From an uncultured Anaerolineales bacterium (GTDB lineage Bacteria; Chloroflexota; Anaerolineae; Epilineales; JAANWY01): 64,000 bases of DNA. The stretch spans positions 14,510-78,509 of the forward strand of contig CAZHMV010000002.1 of NCBI GenBank assembly GCA_964532665.1, given 5' to 3'. A program made the translations under genes and the position numbers. The notes under the pieces were generated by a model. The model did not search any database. It had not been told where the DNA came from and saw only the letters and a program-made list of their open reading frames with translations. How positions within the stretch are numbered: the first letter of the stretch is position 1; every line of letters begins with the position of its first letter. This document shows, piece after piece, positions 2,227-53,006 of this stretch.

Positions 2227-3066
2227 CTACATCTCCCCTTTCGGGTACGATCCGAGTATTCGCAGGTAAGAGGCAATCTCTTTCAGGTGGTTGATCCCAT
2301 TGCGGCAACGTTCCTCGGCCATGCTGCCGGCAAAGTCGAGATAGAAGAGGTACTCCCACGGCTTTCCTTTCAGGGGGCGTGACTCGATCTTGGTCAGGTC
2401 GATGTCACGCAACGCGAAAACACTCAGGGCCTTGAAGAGTACGCCGGGAACGTTCTTCGTGGCAAAAACGATGGAAGTCTTGGCCGGCAGTGGCGGTTCA
2501 ATCGGCTCGCGACCCATGATCAGAAACCGGGTGTAGTTCTCCGGGTTATCTTCAATTCCTTCTTTCAAGATCTCCATTTCGTACACCTGAGCAGCGCGCT
2601 GGCTTGCGATGGCTGCCGCGTCTTTGAGCCCTTCGGCCTTGATCAACGCCACGCTGCCGGCCGTGTCGTAGGTCGAGATGCGTTCGATGCCGGGTAGCCA
2701 GTCCAGCGTCTTTTCGCACTGGGCCAGTGCCTGAGGGTGCGAGTAGATCCGGCGGATGTCGGTGAGCTTTGTACCCGGGTTGACAATCAGGCAGTGGATG
2801 ATGCGCAGGTAGTGCTCACCGACGATGGAGAGATCGTGCTCCAGCAACAAGTCATAGTTGCGGTGAATGCTGCCGGCCAGGGAATTCTCGATGGCGACGA
2901 TCCCACGCTCGCACTTGCTGGCCTCGACACACGCAAACACCTCGTCGAAGGTCTCGCACGGCACCGGCTCAATCGCCTCACCGTCGAAGAACTCAACCGC
3001 CGCTGCTTCGCTGAAAGCGCCGCGCTCGCCCTGGAATGCTACTCGTAAGGTTCTCTTGTCCTTCAT
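2227..3066 (-). CDS. pheA: prephenate dehydratase with ACT domain
   Basis: 279 aa; ESRP signature (TKIESRPLKG); PDT + ACT architecture. Confidence 0.9.
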   Translation of the reverse strand: MKDKRTLRVAFQGERGAFSEAAAVEFFDGEAIEPVPCETFDEVFACVEASKCERGIVAIENSLAGSIHRNYDLLLEHDLSIVGEHYLRIIHCLIVNPGTKLTDIRRIYSHPQALAQCEKTLDWLPGIERISTYDTAGSVALIKAEGLKDAAAIASQRAAQVYEMEILKEGIEDNPENYTRFLIMGREPIEPPLPAKTSIVFATKNVPGVLFKALSVFALRDIDLTKIESRPLKGKPWEYLFYLDFAGSMAEERCRNGINHLKEIASYLRILGSYPKGEM

Positions 3067-3110
3067 GCACCTCTCCTTGCAAGATCTTGCTTCTGCACAA
3101 CAGAGGTGCG

Positions 3111-3190
3111 CAAAACGTGAAGCGTGAAACGCGAAGACCGTAGGTGTGTCGCGTGATCATCACGTTTCACGTTTTACGTTTCACGCACGC
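3111..3190. repeat. family-B heptamer-array hairpin (CGTGAAA/ACGTTTT arms); right arm overlaps the argH stop
   Basis: aaaacgtgaagcgtgaaacgcgaag ... cacgtttcacgttttacgtttcacgc inverted arrays read directly. Confidence 0.75.
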
Positions 3191-4577
3191 GTTGCTGAGC
3201 CTCGCTTGCTGTCGTTAACAGCTCGCGGGCCTGGGCAATCTGGTGTTGTACCGCCGTCGGCGCTGTCCCGCCAATCACATTCTTGACGCGGATCGAGCGA
3301 CTGAAGTCAAACGTCTCGTAGACGTCTGCTTCAAAGGCGGCGTGCTCGGCCTGAAAGTCTTCGATGGACAACTGCCGCAACGCCACATCTCGCGCGCCTG
3401 CCTTGCGAACCAGCCGGCCTACCACGCCGTGGGCTTCGCGAAACGGGACGCCGCGCCGCACCAGGTAGTCGGCCAGGTCGGTGGCGAGCGTCGCATCGTC
3501 CAGGGCCGCTGCCATACGCACTTCGTCCACGTGCAGCGTCCCGACGACGCCGGCTACGACAGGCAAGGTTATCACAAGGGTATCGATGCTGTCAAACAGC
3601 GGCTCCTTGTCCTCCTGCAAGTCCTTGTTGTAGGTGGACGGCAGCCCCTTCAATGTCGTCAACAACCCGACCAGGTGGCCGATCAGCCGGCCGGCCTTGC
3701 CCCGAGACAGCTCCAGGGCATCCGGGTTCATCTTCTGCGGCATCAGGCTCGATCCGGTGGCGTAGGCTTCGTCGATATGCACAAAGCCAAACTCGTCGCT
3801 GGAGTAGAGGATCAGATCTTCGGCCAGCCGGCTCATGTGCACGCCGATGAGCGCGGCCGCGAAGAGGAACTCGGCGATGAAATCGCGGTCGCTCACGGCG
3901 TCCATACTGTTCGGGGTAACACTGTGAAATCCCAACTCCCGGGCCAGGAAATCGCGGTCGATTCCCAGGGCGTTGCCGGCCAGCGCGCCGGCCCCCAGAG
4001 GCAATACGGCTGTGCGTTCGGTGCAGCCGGCCAGCCGCTCCCGATCCCGCTGCAACATCCAGAAGTACGACATCAGCCAATGGCTGAAGAGCACCGGCTG
4101 CGCCTGTCGCAGATGGGTATAGCCCGGCATCAAGGCATCCAGGTGCGCTTCGGCCTGGGTGATGATAGCGTGCTGCAGCTCCTGCAGGTGCTCGTCGATG
4201 CGGTCGATGGCTTCCAGCAGGAACAGCCGCACATCAGTGGCTACCTGGTCGTTGCGGGAGCGACCGGTGTGCAGCTTGCCGGCCACCTCGCCCACCCGTT
4301 CGTGCAGCCGGCGCTCGACCGCGGTATGGATGTCCTCGTCGCCCGGCTTCACCTCGAAGGTGCCGGCGGCGAACTCGCCACGCACCTGCTCCAATCCGTC
4401 GATCAGCGTGTCACGCTCGGTCTCGCTGATGAGGCCGGCGCGCGCCAGCGCCCGGGCGTACGCCACCGAGCCGGTGATGTCAGCGTCGTACAGCCGGCGG
4501 TCGAACCCGATGGAGGCGTTGAACTGCTCCATCAGCTCGTCGGTCGGTTTTTCAAAACGTCCACCCCAGAGTTTCAT
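3174..4577 (-). CDS. argH: argininosuccinate lyase
   Basis: MKLWGGRF N-terminus, fumarate lyase family; GAGGG Shine-Dalgarno 8 nt upstream of ATG 4577 (track ORF uses upstream GTG 4589). Confidence 0.93.
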   Translation of the reverse strand: MKLWGGRFEKPTDELMEQFNASIGFDRRLYDADITGSVAYARALARAGLISETERDTLIDGLEQVRGEFAAGTFEVKPGDEDIHTAVERRLHERVGEVAGKLHTGRSRNDQVATDVRLFLLEAIDRIDEHLQELQHAIITQAEAHLDALMPGYTHLRQAQPVLFSHWLMSYFWMLQRDRERLAGCTERTAVLPLGAGALAGNALGIDRDFLARELGFHSVTPNSMDAVSDRDFIAEFLFAAALIGVHMSRLAEDLILYSSDEFGFVHIDEAYATGSSLMPQKMNPDALELSRGKAGRLIGHLVGLLTTLKGLPSTYNKDLQEDKEPLFDSIDTLVITLPVVAGVVGTLHVDEVRMAAALDDATLATDLADYLVRRGVPFREAHGVVGRLVRKAGARDVALRQLSIEDFQAEHAAFEADVYETFDFSRSIRVKNVIGGTAPTAVQHQIAQARELLTTASEAQQRVRET

Positions 4578-4585
4578 GGTTACCC

Positions 4586-5854
4586 TCACGTCCGATAGTC
4601 CGCATTGATCCGCACGTAGTCTACGGACAGGTCACACGTCCACACGGTCGCCTCGTCATCCCCAAGCCCCAGATCGATGATGATGTCGATGTCCTCGCCA
4701 GCCAAGATCTGCGCCGCAGCCGCCTCATCAACCCGAAAAGGCCGGCCATCCCTCACCAACTGTAGCGACCGCCCCCCGAGTTCCTCCGAGTTCCCCTGAG
4801 TTCCCCCCAGTTCCCCTCCGCCTTCGGCAAACCACAACCCAATCCGCTCCGGATCCACCTCCACCCCGCTGTACCCGACCGCCGCCAGCACGCGGCCCCA
4901 GTTGGCATCTTCGCCGTGCAAGGCGGTCTTGACCAGGGGCGAGCGGGCCACGGCCGTGGCGACCTGTTTGGCATCGCCGGCTGATGGCGCTCCGCGCACG
5001 TGGATCGTGATGAACTTAGTGGCTCCTTCGCCATCACGTACGATCTTCTGCGCCAGGGTGGTGGCGACGGCTGTCACGGCATCCCGGAACGCGCCGAATT
5101 TCTCGGAGTTGGGATGGTCGATGCTCACGCCGGATGCCCCGTTTGCCAGCAGCAGGACCGTGTCGTTGGTGCTGGTATCGCCATCGACGGTGATGCAGTT
5201 GAAGGAGCGGTCCACGGCATGGCGCAGGGCCTGATCCAGCAGGTCGGGGGGCACGGCGGCGTCGGTGGCCAGCACGGCCAGCATGGTGGCCATGTTGGGG
5301 TGGATCATGCCGGCCCCCTTGGCCAAGCCGGCCACCGTCACGTCGCCGGCGCTGAGCCAGACCCGCACGGCGGCTTCCTTGGGCACGGTGTCGGTGGTCA
5401 TGATGGCTCGCGCGGCGTCGTGCCCGCCGTCGGGGGCGAGGGTGCTTGCGGCATGGGTGATGCCGGCGGCGATCCTGGCCATGTCCAGCGGCTGCCCGAT
5501 CACACCGGTGGACATCACCCACACCTGATCCGGCTCACAGCCGGCGGCCTCGGCCGTGAGCTCCGCCATGCGTCGGGCATCCCGCAGGCCCTGGTCGCCA
5601 GTGACGGCGTTGGCGTTGCCGCTGTTGACGACCACGGCGCGGATCGCGGTGGGATTCCGCGCCAGCAGTGCCTGATCGTACAGCACAGGCGCCGCCTTCA
5701 CGCGGTTGGTGGTGAAAACCGCCGCGGCCGTGCACGGTCGCTCCGACACCAGCAGGGCCAGGTCCAGCGCATCGCCAGGCTTCAGGCCACAGTGGACGCC
5801 GGCGGCGCGGAAGCCGGCCACATCGGTGATCGATCCGTCCGGAGTTCTTTGCAT
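4586..5854 (-). CDS. argJ: bifunctional glutamate N-acetyltransferase / amino-acid acetyltransferase ArgJ; carries in-frame repeat insert near C-terminus
   Basis: conserved ArgJ core and C-terminus (...TVWTCDLSVDYVRINADYRT); likely start MQRTPDGSITDV at 5854 (track ORF runs to 6097 through a repeat); ~16-aa GGELGGTQGNSEELGG insertion. Confidence 0.9.
   Translation of the reverse strand: MQRTPDGSITDVAGFRAAGVHCGLKPGDALDLALLVSERPCTAAAVFTTNRVKAAPVLYDQALLARNPTAIRAVVVNSGNANAVTGDQGLRDARRMAELTAEAAGCEPDQVWVMSTGVIGQPLDMARIAAGITHAASTLAPDGGHDAARAIMTTDTVPKEAAVRVWLSAGDVTVAGLAKGAGMIHPNMATMLAVLATDAAVPPDLLDQALRHAVDRSFNCITVDGDTSTNDTVLLLANGASGVSIDHPNSEKFGAFRDAVTAVATTLAQKIVRDGEGATKFITIHVRGAPSAGDAKQVATAVARSPLVKTALHGEDANWGRVLAAVGYSGVEVDPERIGLWFAEGGGELGGTQGNSEELGGRSLQLVRDGRPFRVDEAAAAQILAGEDIDIIIDLGLGDDEATVWTCDLSVDYVRINADYRT
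4768..4830. repeat. GAGTTCC (GGAACTC) 10-bp-period tandem array inside argJ, in frame
   Basis: cgagttcctccgagttcccctgagttccccccagttcccc read directly; same unit as carB insert at 8724-8832 and intergenic 5995-6060. Confidence 0.8.
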
Positions 5855-5994
5855 GATCTGCCTCTTTGAGCTCGCATGTTCGATATGATACAAACGCCCG
5901 ATCGCCCTTAATCCCGACAACAGCGACCCATCGGATGCCCGCCGTCTTCTCCAGGCGACTTGAGACGAAGGTTGGCCCTGAGCTATTGCGCTCT

Positions 5995-6060
5995 CTTCAG
6001 TTTTCCTGAGTCCCTCCGAAGTTCCTCTGAGTTCCCCTTCTCCTTCAGTCTCGCTTGAAC
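5995..6060. repeat. GAGTTCC-type array at the argG 3' end / argJ upstream region
   Basis: tgagtccctccgaagttcctctgagttcccc; overlaps the last codons/stop of argG. Confidence 0.6.
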
Positions 6061-7304
6061 TTCGCGTAGTCCGGCTGACGATAGCGCGACACGCCAAAGC
6101 CGTCGATTTCCATCAGGGCCCGCACTTTCATCGGCAATCCGAAAAGATTGATGAAGCCCACGGCGTCCGTCTGGTCGTAGACGTCCTCCTGGCCGAAGGT
6201 GGCGAAGTCCTCGCGGTACAGGCTGTGAGGTGAGCGCCGGCCGGCCACGGTGCAGTTCCCCTTGTACAGCTTCAGCCGCACCTCGCCGGTCACTGTCTCC
6301 TGAGTCTTCTGCACAAAAGCGTCCAGGGCCTCGCGCAGCGGCGTGAACCATTTGCCGTAGTACACGATTTCGGCGTAGCGTTGGGCGATTACATCCTTGT
6401 AGTGGAGCGTGTCACGATCCAGACAGAGCGACTCCAGCTCCTTGTGAGCGATGCTGAGAATCGTTCCCCCGGGCGTTTCGTAGATACCTCGTGACTTCAT
6501 CCCAACCAGCCGGTTCTCGACCAGGTCCACACGACCAACCCCGTGTTCCCCACCGATGGCGTTGAGCTTCTCGACCAACTCCACCGGTCCATAGACAACA
6601 CCGTCAATCTTCACCGGGACCCCTTCCTTGAACTCGATGGTCACATAGCGTGGCCTGTCCGGTGCATCCTCGGGGGCCACCGTGAGGATGAACACGTCCT
6701 TGTCCGGCTCGTTCCACGGGTCTTCCAGCAGGCCGCCCTCGTGGCTTATGTGCCAGAGGTTGCGGTCGCGGCTGTAGATAGACTTCTCCGTAGCAGCCAC
6801 CGGCACATCATGGGCCTTGGCGTAGGCCAGTGCATCCTCGCGGGACCGGATGTCCCATTCCCGCCAGGGCGCGATCACCTTGAGTTTGGGGTTGAGTGCC
6901 TTGTACGTCAGCTCAAAGCGCACCTGGTCGTTACCCTTGCCGGTGCAGCCGTGGGCGACGGCGTCGGCACCTTCCAGCTCTGCGATCTCGACCTGCCGGC
7001 GCGCGATAAGCGGCCGCGCAAACGACGTCCCCAGCAGGTACTTGCGCTCGTAGACAGCGCCGGCCTGCAGCACGGGCCAGATGAACTCCGTGACGAACTC
7101 GTGCCGCAAGTCGTCGATGTAGACCTTGCTGGCCCCGGTGGCCAGACCCTTCTCCTCCAGCCCTTCCAACTCCTCCCCCTGGCCGATGTTGGCCGAAAAG
7201 GCAATCACCTCGCAGCCGTAATTCTCCTTCAGCCAGGGCACGATTACCGACGTATCCAGACCGCCGGAGTACGCCAGTACCACTTTTTGGATCCGATCTC
7301 GCAT
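6045..7304 (-). CDS. argG: argininosuccinate synthase
   Basis: 419 aa; [11 protein letters not shown]-loop; AAGGAGG RBS 9 nt upstream of ATG 7304. Confidence 0.95.
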
Positions 7305-7317
7305 TGCTTATACCTCC

Positions 7318-7417
7318 TTGTTAGTGATCAGTGAACAGTAATCAGTGAACAGTAATCAGAAATCGGTGGCCGAAGCAACTGATCACTGATCACTGATTAC
7401 TGATCACTGATCACTGG

Positions 7418-7425
<8 letters not shown>
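7318..7425. repeat. family-A heptamer-array hairpin (CAGTRAT x4-5 / ATYACTG x4-5) between carB stop and argG RBS
   Basis: gtgatcagtgaacagtaatcagtgaacagtaatcag ... ctgatcactgatcactgattactgatcactgatcactg; terminal cagtaa supplies the carB TAA stop. Confidence 0.85.
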
Positions 7426-10813
<3,388 letters not shown>

Positions 10814-10844
10814 TGATACTTGTCAGATCGAGAAAAGCCGGCTA

Positions 10845-10925
10845 AAATACAGTAAACAGTGATCAGTCATCAGTGATCAGAATATCACACTGATGACTGA
10901 TCACTGATAACTGGACACTGGTCAC
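10845..10925. repeat. family-A heptamer-array hairpin upstream of carB
   Basis: cagtgatcagtcatcagtgatcag aatatcaca ctgatgactgatcactgataactg. Confidence 0.85.
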
Positions 10926-10941
10926 TGAAAAGGGAGGCTTG

Positions 10942-11400
10942 ATGGATCCTCGAATGGCAGCCCGAGAATGGTTTCTGGATAAGCCGGGCAACAACAAATA
11001 CGACATTGAAGTTCACGTTCAGCGATCTTTCTGGCATAATGGTTTCGGTGAAGCCTTTTTCCGCTGTACGAAAGCGGATCCTCCGTACAAATGTGTCGGG
11101 TTCTGGCGTGGCCAGGAAATCGAGTTCGAGTGGGTGCCTCGCCAATGGCTGACCCTGTCTATGCAGGAATACGATGCCGGTGTTGTCGATGGTTTCAGCG
11201 GCGTCATGCACCTTAAACCCTCACTTCGGTACACTGTCGTCGCGTCGTCGAATAGTCACAACCCCGATGAGGGGGAGCCGGCTGAAGCCGAACCCACCAC
11301 TCAGGAGCAGTTTGTTGTCGAATGGCACGTTCGCGATGTCGAGCAGCGGCTGCGCGAACTGGCGGAGCAGGCCGGCGTGCGAGATGTGCAGCGGGTGTAG
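10942..11400 (+). CDS. hypothetical Trp-rich protein of atypical composition, inserted between carB and carA on the opposite strand
   Basis: 152 aa intact ORF; AGGGAGG RBS 4 nt upstream of ATG; A/T-rich third codon positions unlike flanking genes; no recognisable domain. Confidence 0.45.
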   Translation: MDPRMAAREWFLDKPGNNKYDIEVHVQRSFWHNGFGEAFFRCTKADPPYKCVGFWRGQEIEFEWVPRQWLTLSMQEYDAGVVDGFSGVMHLKPSLRYTVVASSNSHNPDEGEPAEAEPTTQEQFVVEWHVRDVEQRLRELAEQAGVRDVQRV

Positions 11401-11496
11401 GGTGCAGATGCAGCCGCGTTGCCGGCGAGAGCCGCCGAATGAATTCGCCGGCTGATACCGCCAAACCCGTTGAAACGGGTTCGGATCGCTTGTCGA

Positions 11497-11525
11497 ACGC
11501 GCTTCAGCGCGTTTTCGGTAGCAGG
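11497..11525 (+). terminator. hairpin GAACGCGC-TTCA-GCGCGTT + TTTCGG
   Basis: 8-bp stem then U-run; 3' of the + strand ORF, next to a second hairpin AACCCGTT-GAA-ACGGGTT. Confidence 0.4.
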
Positions 11526-11533
11526 CCGCGAAT

Positions 11534-12700
11534 TCATTCGTGGCCGGTGTCAGCCACGAATTCACTCGTTGCTTGCATCATCTCTGTAAACCGCCGAAAC
11601 AAATACATCGCATCGTGCGGCCCGGGCGATGCCTCCGGGTGGTACTGCACACCAAAAGCCGGCCACTCCCGATGCTGCAGCCCCTCCACCGTCCCGTCGT
11701 TCAGATTCACGTGCGTCACCTCGACACTGGCCGGCAGCGAATCCGCATCGACGGCGAAGCCGTGGTTGTGGGTGGTGATCTCCACCGCACCGGTGGCCAG
11801 CTGCTTCACCGGTTGATTCCCCCCCCGATGGCCGAACTTCAGCTTATAGGTCGATCCTCCCAGTGCCAACCCGAGAATCTGGTGCCCCAGGCAAATGCCG
11901 AAGATGGGCACCCGCCCAAGGAGTTGCCGAACGTTCCGCACGGCATAGTCAGCGGCGGCCGGATCGCCAGGACCGTTGGACAGGAACACGCCCTCGGGCC
12001 GTAGATCGAGAACGTCTTCAGCCCCGGTGTAGGCCGGCACCACCATCACCCGACAGCCGTGGTCGTGCAACAGGCGCAGGATGTTGTGCTTGATGCCGAA
12101 GTCGTACGCGACAACGCGGAACGTCGGAGCATCAGCAACGATTTCCTTCGCTTGACCCGGGAGCGCCGGACGTACTCCTCCACGCCAGGTGTACGCCTCC
12201 TTGCACGTGACCACTTCCACCAAATCCCGCCCGACCATGGCCGGCGCCTGCCGGGCTTTACGGACCAGGCTGCCGGAGTCGAGATCCACTGTTGATAGGA
12301 CGCCTCGCATAGCGCCTTCGGACCGAATGTGACGAACCAGGGCGCGGGTATCGACGTCGGTGATGCCCACCACGCCGTGCTCACGCATCCACGATTCCAG
12401 ATCGGACCAGGCGCGCCAGTTGCTGGGCCAGGCGTGATACTCGCGCACCACAAAGCCCTCCACCCAGGGCCGGCCCGATTCCAGGTCATCCGGGTTTACC
12501 CCCACGTTGCCGATGTGCGGGGTCGTCATGACCACGATCTGGCCGCAGTACGACGGATCGGTCAGAATCTCCTGGTAGCCGGTCATCGACGTGGTGAACA
12601 CCACCTCGCCGGCCCGCTCGCCAGTCGCCCCGAACGCCCGTCCTGCAAAAACGGTTCCATCTTCTAGAGCCAGCAAGGCCGGCTGCTGTAGTCCCCTCAT
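11534..12700 (-). CDS. carA: carbamoyl-phosphate synthase small subunit (glutamine amidotransferase)
   Basis: CPSase small-chain N-domain + class-I GATase (GICLGHQ..H..E); likely start [15 protein letters not shown] (track ORF runs upstream through repeat B2). Confidence 0.93.
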
Positions 12701-12702
12701 CT

Positions 12703-12740
12703 CACCGAATACGCAATACGCAATACGCAGTACGAACGCC
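12703..12740. repeat. family-B half element (ACGCAAT ACGCAAT ACGCAGT ACG), one arm only
   Basis: ctcaccgaatacgcaatacgcaatacgcagtacgaacgcc between GNAT stop and carA start. Confidence 0.7.
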
Positions 12741-13246
12741 CTATCCGGCCGCGACCGACATCGTCTGACCCACCAACTCGTCCGCTGCATCCTTCTTGTC
12801 GAGAACCATCGCCACCTCATCACACTCTGGAAACTTGGCGCAGTGCACACAATCCTTCCAGACTTTGCGAGGGAAGCGTTCCATCTCCGTCACCGCGAAA
12901 CCCAGCTTCTCGAAGAAGCCGACCGCCTTGGTCAGCGTGAACACGGTCGGAACCCTGATTTCCTCCGCATCGATCAGAAGCTGCTCCACGATGGTCCGGC
13001 CGACCCCGTTCCCCTGACGGCCAGGGCGGATCACCACCGACCGGACCTCGGCCAGCTCCGGCCCCAACACGACCAGCGCCCCACAGCCGGCGATCCCCTG
13101 TTCGTCCTCGACGACGACCCAACTGCGGATGCTCTCGCACACACTGTCCAGCGAGCGCGGCAGCACGTCGCCGGTTGTGCGGAACCAGTAATTGACCAAA
13201 TCGGTAATCGCTTGTGCGTCAGCCAATGTGGCCCTTCGCAACTTCA

Positions 13247-13247
<1 letters not shown>
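12741..13247 (-). CDS. GNAT-family N-acetyltransferase; candidate short-form N-acetylglutamate synthase
   Basis: 168 aa; acetyl-CoA motif [15 protein letters not shown]; embedded between argD and carA in the arg cluster. Confidence 0.7.
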
Positions 13248-14467
<1,220 letters not shown>

Positions 14468-14486
14468 GATTTGCTCCTTCGATGAG

Positions 14487-14572
14487 AAGTACTGCGTATT
14501 GCGTACTGCGTAGCGTGATCTTCGGCGCCACGTTTTACGCAATACGCAATACGCAGTAGGCAATAGGCTCAC
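14487..14572. repeat. family-B heptamer-array hairpin between argB stop and argD RBS
   Basis: agtactgcgtattgcgtactgcgtag cgtgatcttcggcgccacgtttt acgcaatacgcaatacgcagtagg. Confidence 0.85.
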
Positions 14573-15321
14573 CCTACGACAGCAGTTCCAGCACCACCCG
14601 CCAACCCCGCCAGATCGGTGATCCTCGCCTCCCGCACGCCGGCGGCAACCGCCGCCAGCGCCGAGCGCACTTTGGGGACCATGCCGTCGCGAATCGTGCC
14701 ATTTTCAATCAGCTCTTCGGCTTCCGCAGCCGACAACTGGCTGACGACCTGGCCATTGGCCAGAACGCCGGCCACGTTGGTCAGGAAGTACAGCGCGGAC
14801 GCGCCGAGCGCCCGCGCCACGCCCGTGGCGACGTGGTCAGCATTAACGTTGTAAGTCTGGCCGTCGAAACCCAGCGACACCGGCGACATTACCGGGACGA
14901 TACCCTGCTGTAGCAGCATCCGCAGCGGCTCCGGATCCACTTCGACGACACGCCCGACCCAGCCCAGGTCGCCGGCCGGGTGCACCATCTTCTCAACCCG
15001 CACCAGACCAAGATCGACGCCGCTGAGTCCGAGGGCAGGCACGCCGGCCATGGTCAGCCGCGCCACCAGCCGCTTGTTGACCCGCCCGCTCAGCACCATC
15101 TCGACAACCACCAGTCCGTCGTCGTCCGTGACGCGCAGCCCTTCGACGAAGCGCGGTTTCAGTCCCAGTGTCTTCTGGAGCCACGCAATCTCCTTGCCAC
15201 CGCCATGCACGATGACAACATGCTCCTCCATCCGCGCCACCGTTTCAGCCAGCGCGCAGAGAAACGCGTCATCACCTGCCTGACTTCCACCCACTTTAAG
15301 AACAATCGTCGGTTCATCCAT
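14569..15321 (-). CDS. argB: acetylglutamate kinase
   Basis: 250 aa; amino-acid kinase fold, LKVGGS N-terminal motif; GAGGA RBS. Confidence 0.93.
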   Translation of the reverse strand: MDEPTIVLKVGGSQAGDDAFLCALAETVARMEEHVVIVHGGGKEIAWLQKTLGLKPRFVEGLRVTDDDGLVVVEMVLSGRVNKRLVARLTMAGVPALGLSGVDLGLVRVEKMVHPAGDLGWVGRVVEVDPEPLRMLLQQGIVPVMSPVSLGFDGQTYNVNADHVATGVARALGASALYFLTNVAGVLANGQVVSQLSAAEAEELIENGTIRDGMVPKVRSALAAVAAGVREARITDLAGLAGGAGTAVVG

Positions 15322-15342
15322 CGATCGAGTCCTCGGTACAGA

Positions 15343-15420
15343 GTATTGCGTCTTGCGTCTTACGTCTTGCGTATTTCATAGACGTAAGACGCAAGACGTG
15401 AGACGTGAGACGTCTCACGC
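15343..15420. repeat. family-B heptamer-array hairpin (GCGTCTT / AAGACGC variants) between argC stop and argB
   Basis: gtattgcgtcttgcgtcttacgtcttgcgta tttcatag acgtaagacgcaagacgtgagacgtgagacgtctcacgc. Confidence 0.85.
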
Positions 15421-16428
15421 CTCCAACCCTGCCACCTCCTCCATCCCAAACATCACATTGAAGTTCTGCACCGCCTGGCCAGACGCGCCCTTGATCAGAT
15501 TGTCAATCGCCGAGCAGACGATCAGTTGGTCGTTGCCGGCCGGCGTGAGCGAGATGACACAGCGGTTGGTGTTGACCGCGTGACGCAGGCTCGCCAGTTG
15601 GCCCGGCGGCAGGATGTGCACGAAAGGCTCGCCGGCATACATCTCGCGATACAACGCGTGCAACTTGCTTTCGGACCAGGGCTTCGCCAGGGTGACGTAC
15701 ATGGTGGACAGGATGCCCTGGTTGACCGGCAGCAGGTGGGGGGAGAAGGTCACGCTGAGAGGCCGGCCCAGCGCCGTGCCCAGCTCGGCTTCCATCTCCG
15801 GGATGTGTCGGTGGCAATGCCCGATGTTGTACGGCGAGAAGTTGTCGTGTGCCTCCACAAAGTGGGTTTTCAGGTTCAGCCCGCGTCCGGCCCCCGAGAC
15901 GCCCGACTTGGAATCGACGATGATGGAGTTACCGGCAATGAGCCCCTGCTTCGCCAGCGGATACAGGCCCAGAATCACGCTGGTGGGGTAGCAACCGGGG
16001 TTGGCTACCAGCCGCGCGCCGGCGATCTCCTCGCGATAAAGCTCGGTCAGGCCGTACACCGCCTCGGCCAGCAGGTTAGTGGCGGTGTGGGGCGTCTTGT
16101 ACCACTGCTCGTACACCTTCGGGTCCGACAGCCGGAAATCTGCGCTCAGGTCGATGGCGCGCACGCCGGCTTCGACTACCCGCTGCACCGTGGGAATCGA
16201 CGCCCCGTGCGGCAGGCACAGAAGCGCGGCATCCACCTCATCGACGGGCGCTTCGTCGGTGGGAATGAGGGGGATGTCCCACGGGCAGGCGAAGACGTCG
16301 GACAGCCGGCGGCCGGCGGATCGCTCCGACGTGGCAAAGCGGATTTCGGCGTTGGGGTGCCGGCGAATGATTTTTGCCAGCTCGAATCCGGTATAACCAG
16401 TTGCACCAAAGATACCTACTCTAAGCAT
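15415..16428 (-). CDS. argC: N-acetyl-gamma-glutamyl-phosphate reductase
   Basis: start MLRVGIFGATGYTGFEL (ATG at 16428); Cys active-site region; track ORF runs further upstream. Confidence 0.93.
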   Translation of the reverse strand: MLRVGIFGATGYTGFELAKIIRRHPNAEIRFATSERSAGRRLSDVFACPWDIPLIPTDEAPVDEVDAALLCLPHGASIPTVQRVVEAGVRAIDLSADFRLSDPKVYEQWYKTPHTATNLLAEAVYGLTELYREEIAGARLVANPGCYPTSVILGLYPLAKQGLIAGNSIIVDSKSGVSGAGRGLNLKTHFVEAHDNFSPYNIGHCHRHIPEMEAELGTALGRPLSVTFSPHLLPVNQGILSTMYVTLAKPWSESKLHALYREMYAGEPFVHILPPGQLASLRHAVNTNRCVISLTPAGNDQLIVCSAIDNLIKGASGQAVQNFNVMFGMEEVAGLEA

Positions 16429-16762
16429 GATCCTTCTCTCCTGAGGACAACGGGCGATAGTTGGAGGAGACGTAAGCCATTCGGGTACTTGACATGTCAA
16501 TGCATCAAAAAAGCCCTCCAGGTTATCTGGAGAGCTCCGATTGCGCGTGTTACGACGCCGTCGTCGTGGGTGCAGGACTATCCAGACCCTGGCCGTTTGG
16601 TGAGGCCGGGACGACGACGCAGACGAAGTTCAAGCACAAAGGTCTGGATATCCATAGCCATCTCTTGGGGCAACAGTATAGCATGAAAATCCTGTCCTGT
16701 CAAACGTGAAAGCGCGGTAGTCAGAAGGCACAAGAGTCCGCCAGTGTACCGCGCAGCGGCAT

Positions 16763-26808: not shown

Positions 26809-28536
26809 ATGTACTTCGACACTCTGACCATCTCGGCGATTGCCGATGAGCTTCGTGCGCAGGTCGTCGGCGGGCGGGTGCAGCACGTGGTACTGCCGGA
26901 CGAGCTGTCAGTCGCGCTGGAGATCTACGCCCATGGGCAGCGGCGTTATCTGCTGGCTTCAGCCAACGCGCAAACTGCGCGCGTGCACCTGACGGACGAG
27001 AAGATCCGGCGCGGCGTGGACACAGAGACGCCCCTGCTTCTGCTGCTCCGCAAATACGTGCGGGGTGGGCACCTGGTCGAGGTGGTGCAACCACCATGGG
27101 AACGCATCCTCCGCCTTCGGTTCGGTCACCCGGAGGGTGAAACGACGTTGGTTGTGGAGACCATGGGCCGGCACAGTAACATCATGCTGCTTGTCCCGAG
27201 TCCAATCGAGGGGCTCGATGAGGGCAACGTCGTGCTCGATGCCGTCAAACGGGTGACGCCGGCCATGAGCCGCGTGCGCCCGATCCTCCCACGGACCCCC
27301 TACCAGCCGCCCCCACCCCAGGACAAACTCCCCCCAGATCAACTCACAGAACGCCGCATACGTGACATGCTAGATGCGGCCGATCCGGATGAACCGTTGT
27401 GGCGGGTTCTGTTGCGTGGCATCCTGGGTCTCAGCCCGCTCTCAGCCCGCGAGGTGGCCTACCGGGTGGCCGGCCACCCCCGAGCTCCGGTGAGCGCGGT
27501 CGAGATGATCTCCCCTTTGCCCGAAGCGATAGCGGCCTTGTTCGCGCCGGTGGGAACAGGCGACTGGCAGCCCACGTGGGTGCGCGAAAATGACGAAATC
27601 ATCGCCTTTGCGCCCTACCCTCTGACCCAATACGAGAGCTACGAGCCGGCCAACAGCATCAGCGCGATCGTCGGCGCGTACTTCGCCCAGGAGATCGGGC
27701 GTGACACCTACGCGCAGGCACGCGGCAGCGTGCAGGCGCTGATCGACGAGGCTCGCGGGAAGCTGGAGCGCCAACGGCAGTCACTACAGCGATCCCTGGT
27801 TAGTCAGGAGGAGATGAGCCGGTTGCGGCAGAGCGGTGAGTTGATCCTGGCCTACCAGTGGCAGATTGGACCGGGTCAGACGGTGCTCGAAGCACCGTAC
27901 GAAATCGGCGGCGAACCACTCCACATCCAGCTTGATCCGGCCAGGACGCCGGTGGAGAACGCCCAGGCTTACTTCGAGCGATACGACAAGGCGAAGCGGG
28001 CCGGCCAGCACGTGCCCACCCGCATCGCCAGCACGAAGCTGCGGTTAGACTACCTGGAGCAGTTGGCAACCGATCTGGCTCTCGCGGAGAGCCGGCCCGA
28101 CATCGACGCGGTGCACGAGGCGTTGGTGGATGCCGGCTTCGTCCCGGAGAAGCGCCGGCGCCGGCCTTCGGGCCGCAGCCAGCCGATCCGGGTTGAGATC
28201 GACGGTTTCACGGTTTGGATTGGGCGCAATGCCCGCCAGAACGATGATGTGACGTTCAAGCGCGGTACGGCCAACGATCTCTGGTTGCATGCCAGAGGCA
28301 TCCCCGGGGCGCACGTGGTCATCAAGCAGGCCGGCCACCCCGCGCCCGAGCCGGTGATCCTCGCTGCAGCGCAGCTTGCTGCCTATCATTCCAGCGCTCG
28401 CAACGACGCGCGCGTGGCTGTAGACGTCACCGAAGTCCGTCACGTCCGTCGCATCAAAGGCGGCGCACCCGGGCAGGTGGTGTATTCGCATGAGCGTACG
28501 CTGCATGTGGAGCCCAGGCGGGAGAAAAGAGATTAG
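26809..28536 (+). CDS. rqcH: RqcH / NFACT-family ribosome quality-control protein (FbpA-like)
   Basis: 575 aa; NFACT-N (MYFDTLTISAIADEL..GRHSNIMLL), coiled-coil middle, NFACT-R/DUF814 C-terminus. Confidence 0.88.
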   Translation: MYFDTLTISAIADELRAQVVGGRVQHVVLPDELSVALEIYAHGQRRYLLASANAQTARVHLTDEKIRRGVDTETPLLLLLRKYVRGGHLVEVVQPPWERILRLRFGHPEGETTLVVETMGRHSNIMLLVPSPIEGLDEGNVVLDAVKRVTPAMSRVRPILPRTPYQPPPPQDKLPPDQLTERRIRDMLDAADPDEPLWRVLLRGILGLSPLSAREVAYRVAGHPRAPVSAVEMISPLPEAIAALFAPVGTGDWQPTWVRENDEIIAFAPYPLTQYESYEPANSISAIVGAYFAQEIGRDTYAQARGSVQALIDEARGKLERQRQSLQRSLVSQEEMSRLRQSGELILAYQWQIGPGQTVLEAPYEIGGEPLHIQLDPARTPVENAQAYFERYDKAKRAGQHVPTRIASTKLRLDYLEQLATDLALAESRPDIDAVHEALVDAGFVPEKRRRRPSGRSQPIRVEIDGFTVWIGRNARQNDDVTFKRGTANDLWLHARGIPGAHVVIKQAGHPAPEPVILAAAQLAAYHSSARNDARVAVDVTEVRHVRRIKGGAPGQVVYSHERTLHVEPRREKRD

Positions 28537-28686
28537 AGATTGGAGATTGGAGATTTCTCTACCGTGCACTTTTCGAGGGAAACGAGTTGTCAAGCCACCA
28601 CCGTAGGTGCTCTCATCCTGAAAAGTGTACGGTAGAGAATTGGAGATTCGAGATCCGGTCTCCAATCTCCAATCTCTAATCTCTCA
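28533..28686. repeat. nested palindrome: outer 25-bp arms of GATTGGA/AGATTAG heptamers, inner 17-bp arms, ~45-nt loop; between convergent rqcH and CYTH genes
   Basis: agattagagattggagattggagat...ctctaccgtgcactttt...aaaagtgtacggtagag...atctccaatctccaatctctaatct. Confidence 0.85.
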
Positions 28687-29194
28687 GGTCGGCATACGAG
28701 CCGGCAATCAGGTCAGCCTCACCGATACCGAAAGCTTGCAGCATCTCCTCGGCTTGAGCACGACATGTCTCCTCGCTGCGGCCGTCGATCACCATCACCT
28801 CGAACTCGATAAACGTGCCCAGCCCCCGGACCGTGTCCAGGTGGATTCGGACGTTGTCCACCTGCCACAACTCGCGCCGTTTGTGCACCTGCGTCAGCAC
28901 GCCCAGGGCGTCGGACAGGAGCCGGCGGATACCGGCTGCGTCCTGAACGAGTACCACCTGGAAGTCGCTCGCCTTCGGGGCCGGCTGGTCGGGCCGGCGG
29001 TAGAACACCAGTTGGTCCACCCCGGGCTCCTGCTCGCGGAGCTTCAGCCGGCCCGCCGGCACCCGGAAGTACGTGTCCGTCTGCTGGATCGTTGCTACGT
29101 GCCGTGCCCCAACGTGGCCGGCGGTCTGACGTGCGCGATCCAGGTTCGCATATCGAGCCTTGATTTCAATGTTCTTCACGTCTCGCTCCTCCAC
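28676..29194 (-). CDS. CYTH-domain protein (class IV adenylate cyclase / triphosphate tunnel metalloenzyme)
   Basis: 172 aa; N-terminal EIKARY (ExExK) motif. Confidence 0.8.
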   Translation of the reverse strand: MEERDVKNIEIKARYANLDRARQTAGHVGARHVATIQQTDTYFRVPAGRLKLREQEPGVDQLVFYRRPDQPAPKASDFQVVLVQDAAGIRRLLSDALGVLTQVHKRRELWQVDNVRIHLDTVRGLGTFIEFEVMVIDGRSEETCRAQAEEMLQAFGIGEADLIAGSYADLRD

Positions 29195-39486: not shown

Positions 39487-40461
39487 ATGGCAAGAGTTGT
39501 TGATCAGCGGATGACAGTGCCGGGACGGGGGCTCGCTGACCAGGCGGTGCATCCTCGCAGCCGGTGGCGGGATTTCTGGCGACGGTTCGCCCGCAACCCC
39601 CTGGCGGTCGTCAGCCTGTTTATTGTGCTGGGGATGGTGTTTACCGGCGTCTTTGCGCCCTGGCTGGCACCTTACGATCCGACTGCGGTCAACTACGCCG
39701 AGGTCGAGCAGATGCCCACGCTGCGCCACCCCATGGGAACGGATGAGCACGGTCGTGATCAACTGAGCCGCGTCATCTGGGGCGCACGAACGGCGATCAT
39801 CGTAGCGCCTTCGGCGACGATCCTGGGGTTAGTGCTGGGGCTGTTGTTTGGGTCGCTGGCCGGCTACTTTGGGGGCTGGATCGACGGTTTGATCATGCGG
39901 GCCACGGACATTCTGTTCGCCTTCCCGGGGCTGCTATTTGCGATTCTCATCGCCGCGACGATCCAACCCCGTATCGAAGCCTGGATGCTGAAGTTCGAGA
40001 GGCTGAAGCCGTTTGTGAAGGCCGGCTACGCCGAATTCATGGTGGTGATCATGGCGCTCGGTCTCGTGAGTTGGGCCGGCCTGGCCCGCCTCATTCGAGG
40101 GCAAATTCTGACGCTGAAAGAACAACAGTTTGTCGAAGCCGCGCGGGCAACCGGTGTCCGACCCTGGCAAATCATCACACGCCACCTGTTGCCGAATGCG
40201 ATGGCACCGATCATCGTGTCCTTTTCCATGGGACTGGGTGGCGCCATCCTGGCCGAGTCCACGCTCAGTTTCCTGGGCATCGGCATCAACCCACCGACTC
40301 CCAGTTGGGGAGCCATGATTTACCAGAACTTCAACTTCTGGCGGAGCCCGGCAGCGCCAGTCTTGCTGTGGATCCCGGGCCTGATCGTTGCGTCGTTGGT
40401 ATTCGCCTTCAATTTCATCGGCGATGGGCTGCACGAGGCGTTGAACCCGCACCTGGAGTAG
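39487..40461 (+). CDS. ABC permease (OppC-like), operon 2
   Basis: 324 aa permease fold. Confidence 0.88.
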   Translation: MARVVDQRMTVPGRGLADQAVHPRSRWRDFWRRFARNPLAVVSLFIVLGMVFTGVFAPWLAPYDPTAVNYAEVEQMPTLRHPMGTDEHGRDQLSRVIWGARTAIIVAPSATILGLVLGLLFGSLAGYFGGWIDGLIMRATDILFAFPGLLFAILIAATIQPRIEAWMLKFERLKPFVKAGYAEFMVVIMALGLVSWAGLARLIRGQILTLKEQQFVEAARATGVRPWQIITRHLLPNAMAPIIVSFSMGLGGAILAESTLSFLGIGINPPTPSWGAMIYQNFNFWRSPAAPVLLWIPGLIVASLVFAFNFIGDGLHEALNPHLE

Positions 40462-40502
40462 TATTACGACGCGAGTTTGTCATCTGAGCGACCGTAGGGA
40501 GT

Positions 40503-40565
40503 GAAGAATCTAACATACTGCGTACTGCGTAGGAAAGTGGTCTGTGCAATACGCAATACGCAGTA
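40503..40565. repeat. family-B heptamer-array hairpin (ACTGCGT x2 / ACGCAAT ACGCAAT ACGCAGT)
   Basis: catactgcgtactgcgtaggaaagtggtctgtgcaatacgcaatacgcagtacgcaatg. Confidence 0.8.
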
Positions 40566-40586
40566 CGCAATGTTTGGGAGGAGACA

Positions 40587-41615
40587 ATGGGCACAATTCT
40601 GGAGGTTAAAGACCTCACGACCCGCTTTTTCACCGAGGACGGCACAGTTCACGCCGTCAACGGCGTGTCGTTCACGCTGGATGAAGGCGAGACGTTGGGA
40701 GTAGTGGGTGAGTCCGGTTGCGGCAAGAGCGTCACCATGCTGTCCTTGCTGCGCCTCATCCCGAGCCCGCCGGGTAAAATCGCCGGCAGCGAGGTTCTGT
40801 TCGAGGGGCGGGACCTGCTGAAGATGACCGATGACGAAATCCGTCAGGTCCGGGGCAATCAGATTGCTATGATCTTTCAGGACCCCATGACCAGCCTGAA
40901 CCCGGTATTGACCATCAATCAGCAGATCAGCGAGGCATTGCAACTTCACCTGGGGATGGACAAGGAACAGGCCCGCAAACGCACCATTGAGCTGCTGACG
41001 ATGGTCGGCATTCCGTCGGCGAGCGAGCGTGTGGATGATTATCCGCATCAGTTCTCCGGCGGCATGCGGCAGCGGGTGATGATCGCCATGGCACTGGCCT
41101 GCAACCCCCAGATTCTGATTGCCGACGAGCCGACGACCGCGCTGGACGTGACGATCCAGGCCCAGATCGTTGATCTGGTGAAGCGGCTTCAAGAGGACAT
41201 CGGCATGGCCGTGATTTGGATCACCCACGATTTGGGTGTCGTGGCCAGCATAGCCGATCGGATCAACGTGATGTACGCCGGCTTCGTCATCGAGACGGCC
41301 ACGGTCAAGGAACTGTACGCGGACCCTCGACATCCTTACACCCTTGGCCTCCTCGGGTCCATCCCCCGGCTGGACGAGGTACGACCGGAGACACTGTACT
41401 CCATCGAGGGAATGCCACCGGACCTGATCGTGCTCCCACAGAGTTGCCCATTTGCCCCCCGGTGTGTCTACGCCGTTGATAAATGTTGGGAGGGAAACCC
41501 GCCCCTCGTGCCCACAATATCCACGCGGCACCTGTCTGCATGTTGGCGCTGGGAGGACGTTTCCCTGCGTGATCTCTCTCGCTTGAAAGCCCACGCTGAA
41601 GTTGGAAGGGCGTGA
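40587..41615 (+). CDS. ABC transporter ATP-binding protein (OppD-like), operon 2
   Basis: Walker A GESGCGKS, signature LSGGMRQR, C-terminal oligopeptide/dipeptide transporter domain. Confidence 0.92.
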
Positions 41616-41624
41616 AGGAACATT

Positions 41625-41708
41625 CAGTGAACAGTAACCAGTGATCAGTAATCAGTGATCAGTGAATAGGATTCCGATTACTGATCACTGATTACTGATT
41701 ACTGAACG
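41625..41708. repeat. family-A heptamer-array hairpin
   Basis: cagtgaacagtaaccagtgatcagtaatcagtgatcagtgaa taggattccg attactgatcactgattactgattactg. Confidence 0.85.
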
Positions 41709-41727
41709 GAAGGGAGTCATTGATCGA

Positions 41728-42750
41728 ATGGCGGAAGCGCAGATGCAAACAATGGAAGTTCCTGAGCAAGCGGATGGCGACATCCTGCTTGAAGTAAAGG
41801 GATTGAAGAAATACTTCCCGATCACCGAAGGAGTCATCATTCAGCATCACGTGGGTGACATCAAAGCTGTGGACGGCCTCGACTTCTACATCCGCCGGGG
41901 TGAGACCCTGGGGCTGGTAGGCGAGTCCGGGTGTGGGAAGTCCACGACGGGACGCAGCATTCTGCAATTGTACGAGCCGACCGCCGGCGAAGTCTGGTTC
42001 AAAGGCGTGAACATCGCGCAGTTGCGAGGCGAGAAACTGCGCCGCATGCGTCGTGACATGCAGATGATCTTCCAGGACCCCTACGCGTCGCTGAATCCCC
42101 GCATGACGGTCGGCAACATTATCGGAGAGCCTCTGGAAGTCCACGGCCTGGCAAAAGGCAAGGAAAAGCAAGAGCGTGTTCAGGAGTTGCTGGAGGTTGT
42201 TGGCCTCAACCCCTACTTTGTCAACCGGTATCCCCACGAATTCTCCGGTGGTCAGCGCCAGCGCATCGGTGTGGCCCGAGCGCTGGCCGTCAACCCAGAC
42301 TTCATCGTGTGCGATGAGCCGATATCCGCGTTGGACGTTTCCATCCAGGCCCAGATCATCAACCTGCTGGAACAGTTGCAGGCAGACTTCAACCTGACCT
42401 ACCTGTTCATCGCCCACGACCTGGCCGTCGTTCGACACATCTCTGACCGGGTCGCCGTGATGTACCTGGGCAAGATTGTTGAGATTGCCGACCGCGCCGA
42501 GTTGTATCACAACCCGTTGCATCCGTACACCAAGGCGCTGCTGTCGGCTGTGCCGATCCCGGACCCCGCCGTTGAAGAAGGTCGCGAGCGGATTATCTTG
42601 ACAGGAGACGTGCCGAGCCCGGCCCACCCGCCGTCGGGTTGTCGCTTCCATACTCGCTGCCCTATCATGCAACGCCCCATCTGTGTAGAGGAAGAGCCAG
42701 AGATGTACGACCGTGGCGGCGAGCATTTCGTGGCCTGTCATTTGGTGTAG
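41728..42750 (+). CDS. ABC transporter ATP-binding protein (OppF-like), operon 2
   Basis: Walker [18 protein letters not shown]; C-terminal Cys cluster. Confidence 0.92.
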
Positions 42751-43086
42751 CGGGGTTGAACCTTTGCCGGCTGAATCTGGTAGTTCATTATAGATAAGGT
42801 CCAGAATTTGTTTAACGGCTTTGTGACTTGTATTATAGAATGCGAATGCCTTTGATGTTCTCTTGACCCGGGAAGGGGGTGGTGCAAACCGACCTACTGT
42901 GAGAGTGGCTCCTGGCCCAATCGGTTTCGAGACAGCAGTGATTCCTGGCGACGGTGTAGGCCGGCTGACGTGTCCGACCCAGGTGTTGAGTGGATGATAC
43001 CCACACCCCTGCCGAATTCTCACGGGTGTGTCAGCCCCGGGACTCCCTAACGTTCAGGAACCCCCATCAACAGTGAAGGAGGAGAA

Positions 43087-45033: not shown

Positions 45034-45177
45034 CCAGTCGGAGGGTCGATCTGGATCTCGGGAGCGGACTTGTGTACCTGAGCACTACGTCGGCCTGATG
45101 GTTGGGTTATCGCTAGGGATGGCAACACCCGAGGGTGTTGCCATCCCTATATTCGGCCCGCGTGGGAAGGTTGAACG

Positions 45178-46629: not shown

Positions 46630-46658
46630 GGCAATGGAACAAAGAGGGAAGGTAAATC

Positions 46659-47582: not shown

Positions 47583-47590
47583 GGAGCAGG

Positions 47591-48133: not shown

Positions 48134-48212
48134 GACCAGTAATCAGTAACCAGTGATCAGTGATCAGTGATCAGACAACTGATCACTGATCACTGTTCAC
48201 TGATTACTGAAA
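48134..48212. repeat. family-A heptamer-array hairpin
   Basis: cagtaatcagtaaccagtgatcagtgatcagtgatcag acaa ctgatcactgatcactgttcactgattactg. Confidence 0.85.
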
Positions 48213-48224
48213 AAGAGGGAGCCT

Positions 48225-49268: not shown

Positions 49269-49300
49269 CTGGCGTTACATCTTTCGACAGCAGACTCGAA

Positions 49301-49414
49301 CTACTCAGCCACCCTCCCGCAGGTTACGATGACCGGTGCTTCTGACCGTGAGGCAAGGTCTTTGGCAGTGGTTTTTTGGCGGGAGAAGGTTCAAACCTGC
49401 GGGAGGGTGAGTGG
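49301..49414. repeat. ~113-nt element with 22-nt terminal inverted stems, copy 2; abuts the start of the last ABC ATPase gene
   Basis: ctactcagccaccctcccgcaggtt...aacctgcgggagggtgagtgg; flanked by imperfect direct repeat GCAGACTCGAA / GCAGAATCAA. Confidence 0.8.
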
Positions 49415-49443
49415 TCACGCAGAATCAATTATCGGGAGCGACG

Positions 49444-50430: not shown

Positions 50431-50443
50431 CGGTTGGGAGGTA

Positions 50444-52892: not shown

Positions 52893-53006
52893 CCTCTGAC
52901 CAGTGATCAGTAATCAGTGATCAGTAATCAGTATTCGGCGATCAGTAATTGGCATCTGCTCACTGATTACTGATCACTGGATACCGATCACTGATCACTG
53001 GTTGCC
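52893..53006. repeat. family-A heptamer-array hairpin; right arm provides the TGA stop of the NYN gene
   Basis: ccagtgatcagtaatcagtgatcagtaatcagtattcggcgatcagtaattggcatctgctcactgattactgatcactggataccgatcactgatcactgg. Confidence 0.85.

Follow-up and report, generated by a model that had tools for sequence, protein, structure and literature searches.

Paired heptamer arrays form predicted stem-loops between genes of an uncultured Anaerolineae bacterium

The DNA analysed here, referred to as the window, is a stretch of 64,000 nt from an uncultured bacterium of the Anaerolineae (Chloroflexota), and its flanking proteins are closest to those of uncultured Anaerolineae MAGs. The window includes an arginine gene cluster, in which carB, argG, argJ, argH and pheA follow one another, and two operons for peptide transporters. 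Five sites, and only five, carry the arrangement 5'-(CAGTRAT)n-loop-(ATYACTG)n-3', which is referred to as family A (sites A1 to A5; Table 1). The first-pass annotation of this DNA had listed five copies of CAGTRAT arrays with inverted counterparts at these positions, and a scan of the window returned exactly those five.

Table 1. Positions of heptamer hairpins and neighbouring features in the window, with the Shine-Dalgarno sequence (SD) that follows them where one was noted.
Feature	Position	Strand	Setting and details
A1	7323..7415	-	between carB and argG; dG -61, z -11.6; argG SD AAGGAGG 6 nt beyond the stem
A1 parts (sense - strand)	left arm 7415-7379, loop 7378-7360, right arm 7359-7323	-	left arm of CAGTGAT/CAGTAAT units
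Predicted sigma-70-like promoter	10820..10848	+	TTGTCA-17-TAAAAT; 10/12 matches
A2	10850..10913	+	left arm 10857-10875, right arm 10888-10906, outer pairs 10850-10853/10910-10913; about three more degenerate units in the right arm, reaching 10927; then SD GGGAGG and ATG 10942 of a gene of 152 aa
A3	41625..41705	+	flanked by opp/dpp-type ABC ATPase genes; paired left arm 41639-41665, with two unpaired units ahead of it from 41625; right arm 41678-41704; SD GGGAG 6 nt on
A4	48137..48210	+	after a 180-aa gene (stop TAA 48131-48133) and before an ABC ATPase gene; arms 48143-48174 (left) and 48179-48210 (right), loop ACAA; SD GAGGGAG 5 nt on
A5	52897..52997	-	between NYN_YacP gene and ferredoxin gene; on the sense (-) strand, left arm ~52997-52961, right arm ~52933-52897; SD GAGGAGG 2 nt on
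B1	12704..12736	-	family B, one-armed array; upstream of carA
B2	14489..14562	-	family B (YTGCGTA...TACGCAR); arginine cluster, from stop to SD AAGGAG; dG -49, z -6.7
B3	40516..40571	+	family B; between opp permease and first ATPase gene; SD GGGAGG after
C1	15343..15415	-	family C (GCGTCTT...AAGACGC); arginine cluster; dG -45, z -9.9
C2	22629..22680	-	family C; dG -41.5, z -9.7
D1	28528..28686; hairpin of 171 nt (28520-28690)	.	family D (AGAGATT/GGAGATT + complement); dG -90.6, z -10.9
E1	3108..3188	-	family E (GTGAAAC...GTTTCAC); between argH and pheA
carB, first in-frame insertion	9451-9577		8-mers GTGAGGGG facing CTTTTCCC; aa ~410-456
carB, second in-frame insertion	8725-8801		10-mers GAACTCGGGG; aa ~662-695
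Decamer array, argJ	4773-4816		GGGGAACTCR / CCCCGAGTTC; inside the gene
Decamer array, argG-argJ spacer	6006-6035		same decamer family
Palindrome of 105 nt	11436-11540		solo copy; 25-nt terminal inverted repeats (CGAATGAATTCGCCGGCTGATACCG), two inner mini-hairpins
Space between two transporter operons	42751-43086		336 nt; three promoter-like sites, without a heptamer array
GC-rich hairpin	45034-45177 (stem ~45114-45149)		GGGATGGCAACACCC...GGGTGTTGCCATCCC; after solute-binding-protein gene
Spacer between two ABC ATPase genes	49269-49410		142 nt; non-heptamer hairpin CCCTCCCGCAGGTT...AACCTGCGGGAGGG, dG -57

The repeat unit is strongly over-represented, as the sequence CAGTRATCAGTRAT occurs 17 times in the window and not once in 100 dinucleotide shuffles. 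A looser scan of the window, for at least two CAGTNNN units followed by a further CAGT, found ten arrays, which make up five pairs and correspond to the family A sites only. In each pair an array on the + strand is followed by an array on the - strand, an arrangement absent from the shuffles, and the earlier claim that every array has an inverted partner is thus borne out at all five sites. The predicted RNA folds of A1 to A5 each consist of one long stem of 23-42 bp, with dG values of -38.8 to -61.5 kcal/mol and z scores of -8.0 to -11.6, and no shuffled sequence equalled the real fold. The palindromic architecture and long stem that had been proposed are therefore recovered by folding, and the stems within operons include duplexes of 19 bp or more that are perfect or nearly so. 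The arms had been described as holding four or five heptamers; they are indeed tandem heptamer arrays, but their actual size is three to seven units, and the two arms of a hairpin are frequently unequal.

The family A unit can be read as the 6-bp palindrome TGATCA plus one base, which is a G in the left arm and a C in the right arm. Apart from R/Y variants, this seventh base is the sole difference between the arms, each of which is partly complementary to itself. All G-variant units contain TGATCA, and 20 of the 57 TGATCA sites in the window fall within the 466 nt of family A. GATC itself is common throughout the window, at an abundance near the Markov expectation, and is not unusual outside family A. 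The unit contains no runs of G, A2 contains a single GATAACTG unit, and a search of the whole window against Rfam 15 gave no match at gathering score. The heptamer is all that the five copies share, in that the number of units, their order and the loops all differ.

At four of the five sites (A1, A3, A4 and A5) the hairpin fills the entire gap between the stop codon of one gene and the SD of the next gene on the same strand, ending 2-6 nt before the SD. In two cases the hairpin also supplies the stop codon of the upstream gene, as had been noted previously. For instance, the carB stop codon TAA (7418-7420) lies within the degenerate first unit of A1, CCAGTAA, and the stop codon TGA (52995-52997) of the NYN gene, which is of the YacP type (Pfam PF05991), lies within the first unit of A5, CAGTGAT. 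The exception is A2, which is intergenic but not intercistronic, being situated between the divergent carB (start at 10813, - strand) and a conserved hypothetical gene of 152 aa that was counted as a real gene (18 homologs, 58-89% identity). The view that all copies are intergenic thus holds, whereas the stop-to-SD arrangement within an operon applies to four of five. A2 begins 1-2 nt after the end of a predicted promoter, which places it at the predicted 5' end of the transcript. Across all five sites, the right arm ends 2-25 nt before an SD and 16-35 nt before a start codon.

The first-pass annotation treated family A as a group of its own. The family is real, but it is not special, as arrays with a period of seven dominate the window: there are 24, against nine or fewer for each of the other periods from 5 to 12. 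The window has no fewer than five families of heptamer hairpins, family A included, and the five unit families together account for at least 11 two-armed hairpins, all of which fold strongly. At least six of these do not belong to family A (B2, B3, C1, C2, D1 and E1), with dG values of -27 to -91 and z scores of -4 to -11. At same-strand junctions that carry a heptamer hairpin, the hairpin ends 2-9 nt before the SD in seven of nine cases, and spacers longer than 30 nt in the arginine cluster hold a heptamer array in six of seven cases and a decamer array in the remaining one. D1 lies between the convergent NFACT and CYTH genes, where arrays of AGAGATT and AATCTCT prolong a unique inner stem to give a nested hairpin, an arrangement which suggests that heptamer arrays can grow onto an existing hairpin.

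Intrinsic termination was considered as a role for A1 to A5 and rejected. A terminator scan of positions 2500-16500 and 40000-54000, regions that leave out C2 and D1, called no heptamer hairpin as a terminator, A1 to A5 included, and no T tract follows the stems.

Tandem arrays are also found in coding DNA. The carB gene (7418-10813, - strand) has two in-frame insertions, one made of 8-mers and the other of 10-mers, and an alignment with E. coli CarB (1bxr_A) breaks exactly at both of them. The 10-mer array is 30 nt, or three units, shorter in a relative at ~85% nucleotide identity (L107, described below), with the reading frame kept. The decamers recur, as one and the same family, inside argJ and in the argG-argJ spacer, and the spacer array is present in L107 too. 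The in-frame arrays inside carB and argJ are suggestive of a mutational process that is indiscriminate with respect to its target.

Three further intergenic features of the transporter operons are not built from heptamers. The GC-rich hairpin that follows the solute-binding-protein gene occurs at the same junction, with a changed sequence, in all the relatives compared for these operons, L126, L128 and L129 among them. It thus illustrates, within the same operons, what a conserved structure looks like, and it probably stabilises or attenuates that transcript. A second non-heptamer hairpin occupies the spacer between two ABC ATPase genes, and the space between two transporter operons, with its promoter-like sites, probably serves the second of them as its regulatory region.

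Comparison with related sequences shows how the sites change over short evolutionary distances. Two JGI metagenome contigs (L001 and L002) are 99.98% identical to the window, and array length does not differ among these three assemblies of one population; thus, the arrays are not hypermutable. The Anaerolineae MAG K_2_bin.73 (L107), at ~85% nucleotide identity, shares the carB-argG-argJ-argH-pheA gene order and carries a family A hairpin between carB and argG, with ~9.5 units in the left arm and ~4.5 in the right. Here, the carB stop codon is a TGA within the first unit, and the loop is the reverse complement of the A1 loop in the window, which suggests exchange between the arms through recombination or template switching. 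E1 in L107 is ~93% identical to the window copy, as compared to ~85% for the flanking genes, with the number of units unchanged. Both A1 and E1 are missing from L003, a nearer relative as judged by argG, and E1 is also missing from L006. Upstream of the argG SD, a one-armed (TACGCAR)5 array is found in L003 and approximately two such units in L004.

A similar range of states is seen in the peptide-transporter operons, for which relatives at 93% (L126 and L127) and 83-84% (L128 and L129) protein identity were available. In L126 and L127 the A3 site has just one arm, an (ATYACTG)~6 array beside the SD, the B3 site holds a shorter hairpin and A4 is degenerate, being short and two-armed in L126. 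The A3 and A4 sites of L128 and L129 carry no array, while the B3 site is an empty spacer of 22 nt in L129 and a different one-armed heptamer array in L128. Arrays of other heptamers are also present at operon junctions in these relatives, with GTCGGCG units at 7864-8000 of L128 and GGATATT/GGGGATT-like units at 12762-13017 of L126.

In the case of A2, the predicted promoter is conserved in three relatives (L160, L161 and L162), and in each of them a heptamer hairpin begins 0-1 nt past the -10 element. The hairpin belongs to family A in the window and in L160, and is built from TGGAGAT units in L161 and L162. Thus, a large stem-loop has persisted at the predicted 5' end of the 152-aa gene's transcript while its repeat unit was replaced. 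Orthologous sites as a whole therefore show different unit numbers, an inverted loop, a single arm, another heptamer family, or nothing. The presence/absence polymorphism that was to be checked for at orthologous loci does not take the form of a fixed element gained or lost; unit number changes gradually instead.

Several observations bear on whether the hairpins are mobile. The loops of A1 to A5 are unrelated to one another, as are those of 17 hairpins from other genomes, and neither target-site duplications nor flanking direct repeats were found at A1 to A5. There is no Y1_Tnp gene in the window. In L160 and L161, a gene of this type (PF01797; IS200/IS605/RAYT-type) is present between the 152-aa gene and carA, where it is flanked by a 105-nt palindrome that is not of family A and by arrays of the 12-mer CCGCCGAATGRG. 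By analogy, the palindrome and its transposase look like a REPIN/RAYT-type system, of which the window retains a solo palindrome. Since the transposase flanks this other palindrome, family A is not the substrate suggested by the gene neighbourhood.

Family A is not confined to this lineage. A scan for (CAGTRAT)3, with one genome per species, identified arrays in Anaerolineae, Cyanobacteria, Bacteroidota, Acidobacteriota, Planctomycetota, Verrucomicrobiota, Deltaproteobacteria and others among the matches listed. About one-third of the arrays among these matches have an inverted partner, which almost always lies downstream (14 downstream versus none upstream in a strict test, and ~45 versus 2 in a lenient one, again among the matches listed). 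Approximately half of 40 two-armed hairpins in other genomes have an ORF that ends just before them and another that starts just after, and one-armed arrays show a weak bias of orientation toward ORF starts (24 versus 13). In addition, viral contigs from IMG/VR (L130-L148) contain 19 loci of the family A form and none of the reverse form. The viral palindromes lie between ORFs, at no more than two per contig, on related contigs with a GC content of 0.52-0.62, and have a common loop, AAAGGCAAA(A), in either orientation. The suggestion that this was a genome-specific system cannot stand given the same palindrome in many phyla and in viral contigs.

The polarity of family A is strong but not absolute. 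A rule without exception was rejected on account of 11 metagenome contigs (L149-L159; GC 0.62-0.68), from a few related samples, that carry the reverse form, (ACTGATC)n abutting (AGTGATC)n, as zero-loop perfect palindromes. As both polarities give the same duplex, the duplex leaves the fixed polarity unexplained.

Heptamer arrays of this kind have precedents. The STRR heptanucleotide repeats of cyanobacteria, reportedly described by Mazel et al. in 1990 and by Vioque in 1997, have been known since 1990 as tandem 7-nt intergenic units, with several unit families per genome. In the narrow sense, STRRs are direct arrays of STRR1-3 units in heterocyst-forming cyanobacteria. STRR1 (CCCCAGT) and STRR3 (CAACAGT) include a CAGT core, which family A shares, and a helix of RNase P RNA is lengthened by STRR units, which there occupy both arms of a stem. 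The resemblance to STRRs that had been pointed out for family A is upheld under a broad definition, as head-to-tail arrays of long 7-nt repeats that are mostly intergenic. It does not extend to the narrow definition, given the Anaerolineae host and the CAGTRAT unit, and the systematic palindromic pairing at operon junctions seen in family A is not part of how STRRs are defined.

A close match in sequence is offered by the TAACTGA direct repeats that precede start codons in Beggiatoaceae, Cyanobacteria and Bacteroidetes, for which recognition of arrays near the start by a translational regulator has been proposed (MacGregor 2015, PMC4679880). The units are one base apart (TAACTGA as compared to TCACTGA/TTACTGA), and both repeats are scattered over distant phyla. 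Like family A, TAACTGA arrays are intergenic and sometimes overlap the upstream stop codon, and they lie just ahead of starts in the orientation of the family A right arm; in Beggiatoa, 147 point toward start codons and 12 toward stop codons (PMC4679880). However, TAACTGA repeats are direct arrays of two to six units with no predicted structure, and only one of 170 sets is inverted, whereas family A is always paired. Moreover, family A arrays are followed by an SD, unlike TAACTGA repeats, and are hosted by a member of the Chloroflexota, a phylum not among the reported hosts of TAACTGA.

In terms of architecture, family A resembles the inverted pairs of GGGAATC arrays in Xanthomonas, of which there are 70-75 per genome (Rehm et al. 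2015, PMC4692102). These too consist of two nearby, convergent intergenic arrays with the potential to form a stem-loop or cruciform, and they keep their position between related species while varying in length. The Xanthomonas units belong to another phylum and are G-rich and quadruplex-capable, in contrast to CAGTRAT, and the polarity, the position between stop and SD and the several families per genome seen here are not described for the Xanthomonas pairs. A third comparison is with the REP, BIME and REPIN sequences of E. coli and Pseudomonas, which are thought to stabilise upstream mRNA segments (PMC3116915). Like family A, they are imperfect palindromes that abound in intergenic DNA and often separate genes of the same operon, but REPs have a fixed, non-periodic sequence and a REP-flanked RAYT gene, whereas family A is periodic and variable in length with unrelated loops. 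By analogy, family A probably works like REPs at the RNA level. Heptamers are said to be the commonest long simple repeats in bacteria and have been ascribed to polymerase slippage (Mrazek 2007, as cited in PMC4679880 and PMC4692102), and a literature search for heptamer repeats in Chloroflexi or Anaerolineae found no report. Family A is a real, lineage-wide and fast-changing variant of the arrays described in cyanobacteria, Beggiatoa and Xanthomonas.

The explanation favoured here, to which we give about an even chance of being correct, is that the arrays grow in place by slippage together with arm-to-arm template switching or recombination, and that, as generic RNA stem-loops where one cistron meets the next, they are tolerated and probably retained. 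Heptamer arrays would lengthen and shorten via replication slippage. The opposite arm would be produced through intra-strand template switching (quasipalindrome correction) or recombination of one arm with the other, and the same processes would maintain its approximate complementarity. Owing to the periodicity of both arms, a stem still pairs after units are gained or lost, and stems can thus grow; unequal arms are expected if each arm slips independently. Survival of a hairpin would be limited to gaps that tolerate extra DNA, either from stop to SD or from promoter to SD. Turnover in place is directly visible at orthologous sites as inversion of the loop and replacement of the family.

Once transcribed, as they presumably are, such hairpins would form a stem-loop of 23-42 bp, located at the 3' end of one cistron and at the 5' end of the next. 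The most likely effect would be a generic one: the stem-loop would block 3' exonucleases, shield the 5' end and probably serve as an RNase III substrate, allowing cistrons within one operon to decay independently. Selection would act on the structure and not on the heptamer sequence. The role in RNA stability or processing that was first suggested for the hairpins gains from their span between stop and SD and from the structure kept at a predicted 5' end, but not from any excess of G:U pairs on the sense strand. G:U pairs make up 21 of 379 pairs in the sense folds and 26 of 380 in the antisense folds, and counts that are alike on both strands argue neither for nor against an RNA role. Slippage fails to account for the fixed polarity or for the recurrence of one heptamer across phyla. 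In addition, the stop-to-SD position is also expected from neutral insertions into minimal spacers, which counts against the favoured explanation, and the short or different spacers of relatives at 83-84% protein identity, together with the loss of A1 and E1 from L003, indicate that the hairpins are dispensable.

A serious rival, which we consider possible though less likely, is that the hairpins are a neutral or selfish by-product of slippage and palindrome formation that persists wherever stop-to-SD spacers tolerate it, with no function as RNA or DNA. Tolerance alone would yield the observed positions, and the unequal arms, the absence of a G:U strand asymmetry and the arrays in the coding DNA of carB and argJ are all consistent with a lack of function. 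The same can be said of the absence of A1 and E1 from L003, and of the absence of the hairpins from slightly more distant relatives in which the GC-rich conserved hairpin persists. A by-product would not, however, be expected to remain after a conserved promoter in the window and in L160, L161 and L162 despite a change of family, nor to be conserved at 93% where the flanking genes are at ~85%, as with E1. The retention of A1, A4 and B3 at ~85% nucleotide identity and the same inter-ORF position across many phyla, for about half of 40 two-armed hairpins, likewise argue against this alternative.

The remaining alternatives invoke a dedicated protein. Mobile palindromes resembling REP/REPIN or MITE elements, copied to further sites by a transposase (such as one of the Y1/RAYT type acting on single-stranded hairpins) and perhaps carried between hosts by phages, would explain the family A form in many phyla, the replacement of the family at the A2 site and, since a sequence-specific enzyme would give it, the fixed polarity; the 19 viral loci with the common loop AAAGGCAAA in either orientation suggest copying of whole units, and relatives do carry a Y1_Tnp gene. 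A mobile, enzyme-driven origin is still considered because of the polarity, the recurrence across phyla and the phage copies, but it is unlikely. Unrelated loops in the five window copies and in 17 hairpins elsewhere, the lack of target-site duplications, orthologous sites whose differences lie in unit number and not in whether a fixed element has been inserted, the lack of Y1_Tnp in the window and the flanking of the relatives' transposase by another palindrome, with one solo copy in the window, all weigh against it. For the same reasons, earlier proposals of a MITE-like element or a REP system are not sustained, the heptamer alone being shared among copies. Arrays that serve as binding sites seem similarly improbable, whether for a translational regulator on (UNACUGA)n RNA near the start or for a DNA-binding protein or methyltransferase on phased TGATCA/GATC, with the left arm as a masking anti-sequence. 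The right arm, (TYACTGA)n, does point at the SD and start as in the Beggiatoa arrays, in L126 and L127 the place of A3 is taken by a one-armed (ATYACTG)~6 array adjoining the SD, and TGATCA, carried by every G-variant unit, is concentrated in family A. Against this, four other families of unrelated sequence have the same architecture and positions, the swap at the A2 site implies that no single sequence is required, GATC is ordinary elsewhere in the window, in other genomes one-armed arrays are weakly biased in orientation, and no candidate protein was identified. A bolder proposal, which we regard as a long shot if a marginally better one, is that the family A palindrome is a horizontally spreading, polarity-defined module, made or recognised by a dedicated nuclease, recombinase or RNA-binding protein and common to more than ten bacterial phyla and to phages, and that it would act as a plug-in stem-loop for transcript boundaries and independent cistron decay, with interchangeable families.

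The window presents heptamer arrays in a compact and testable form, as they occupy nearly every gap in an arginine operon and in two peptide-transporter operons. The intermediate states found in relatives (one-armed arrays, unequal arms and an inverted loop) and the retention of a hairpin at the promoter-proximal A2 site while its repeat unit was swapped also make the questions of function and origin more approachable. The fixed polarity and the use of one heptamer across phyla and viral contigs could point to an enzyme or to a mutational bias. If the hairpins are neutral, they would still signal a strong mutational process, specific to heptamers, in the Anaerolineae. If, on the other hand, they set mRNA boundaries, they may represent a bacterial route by which stem-loops of adjustable length are derived from simple repeats.
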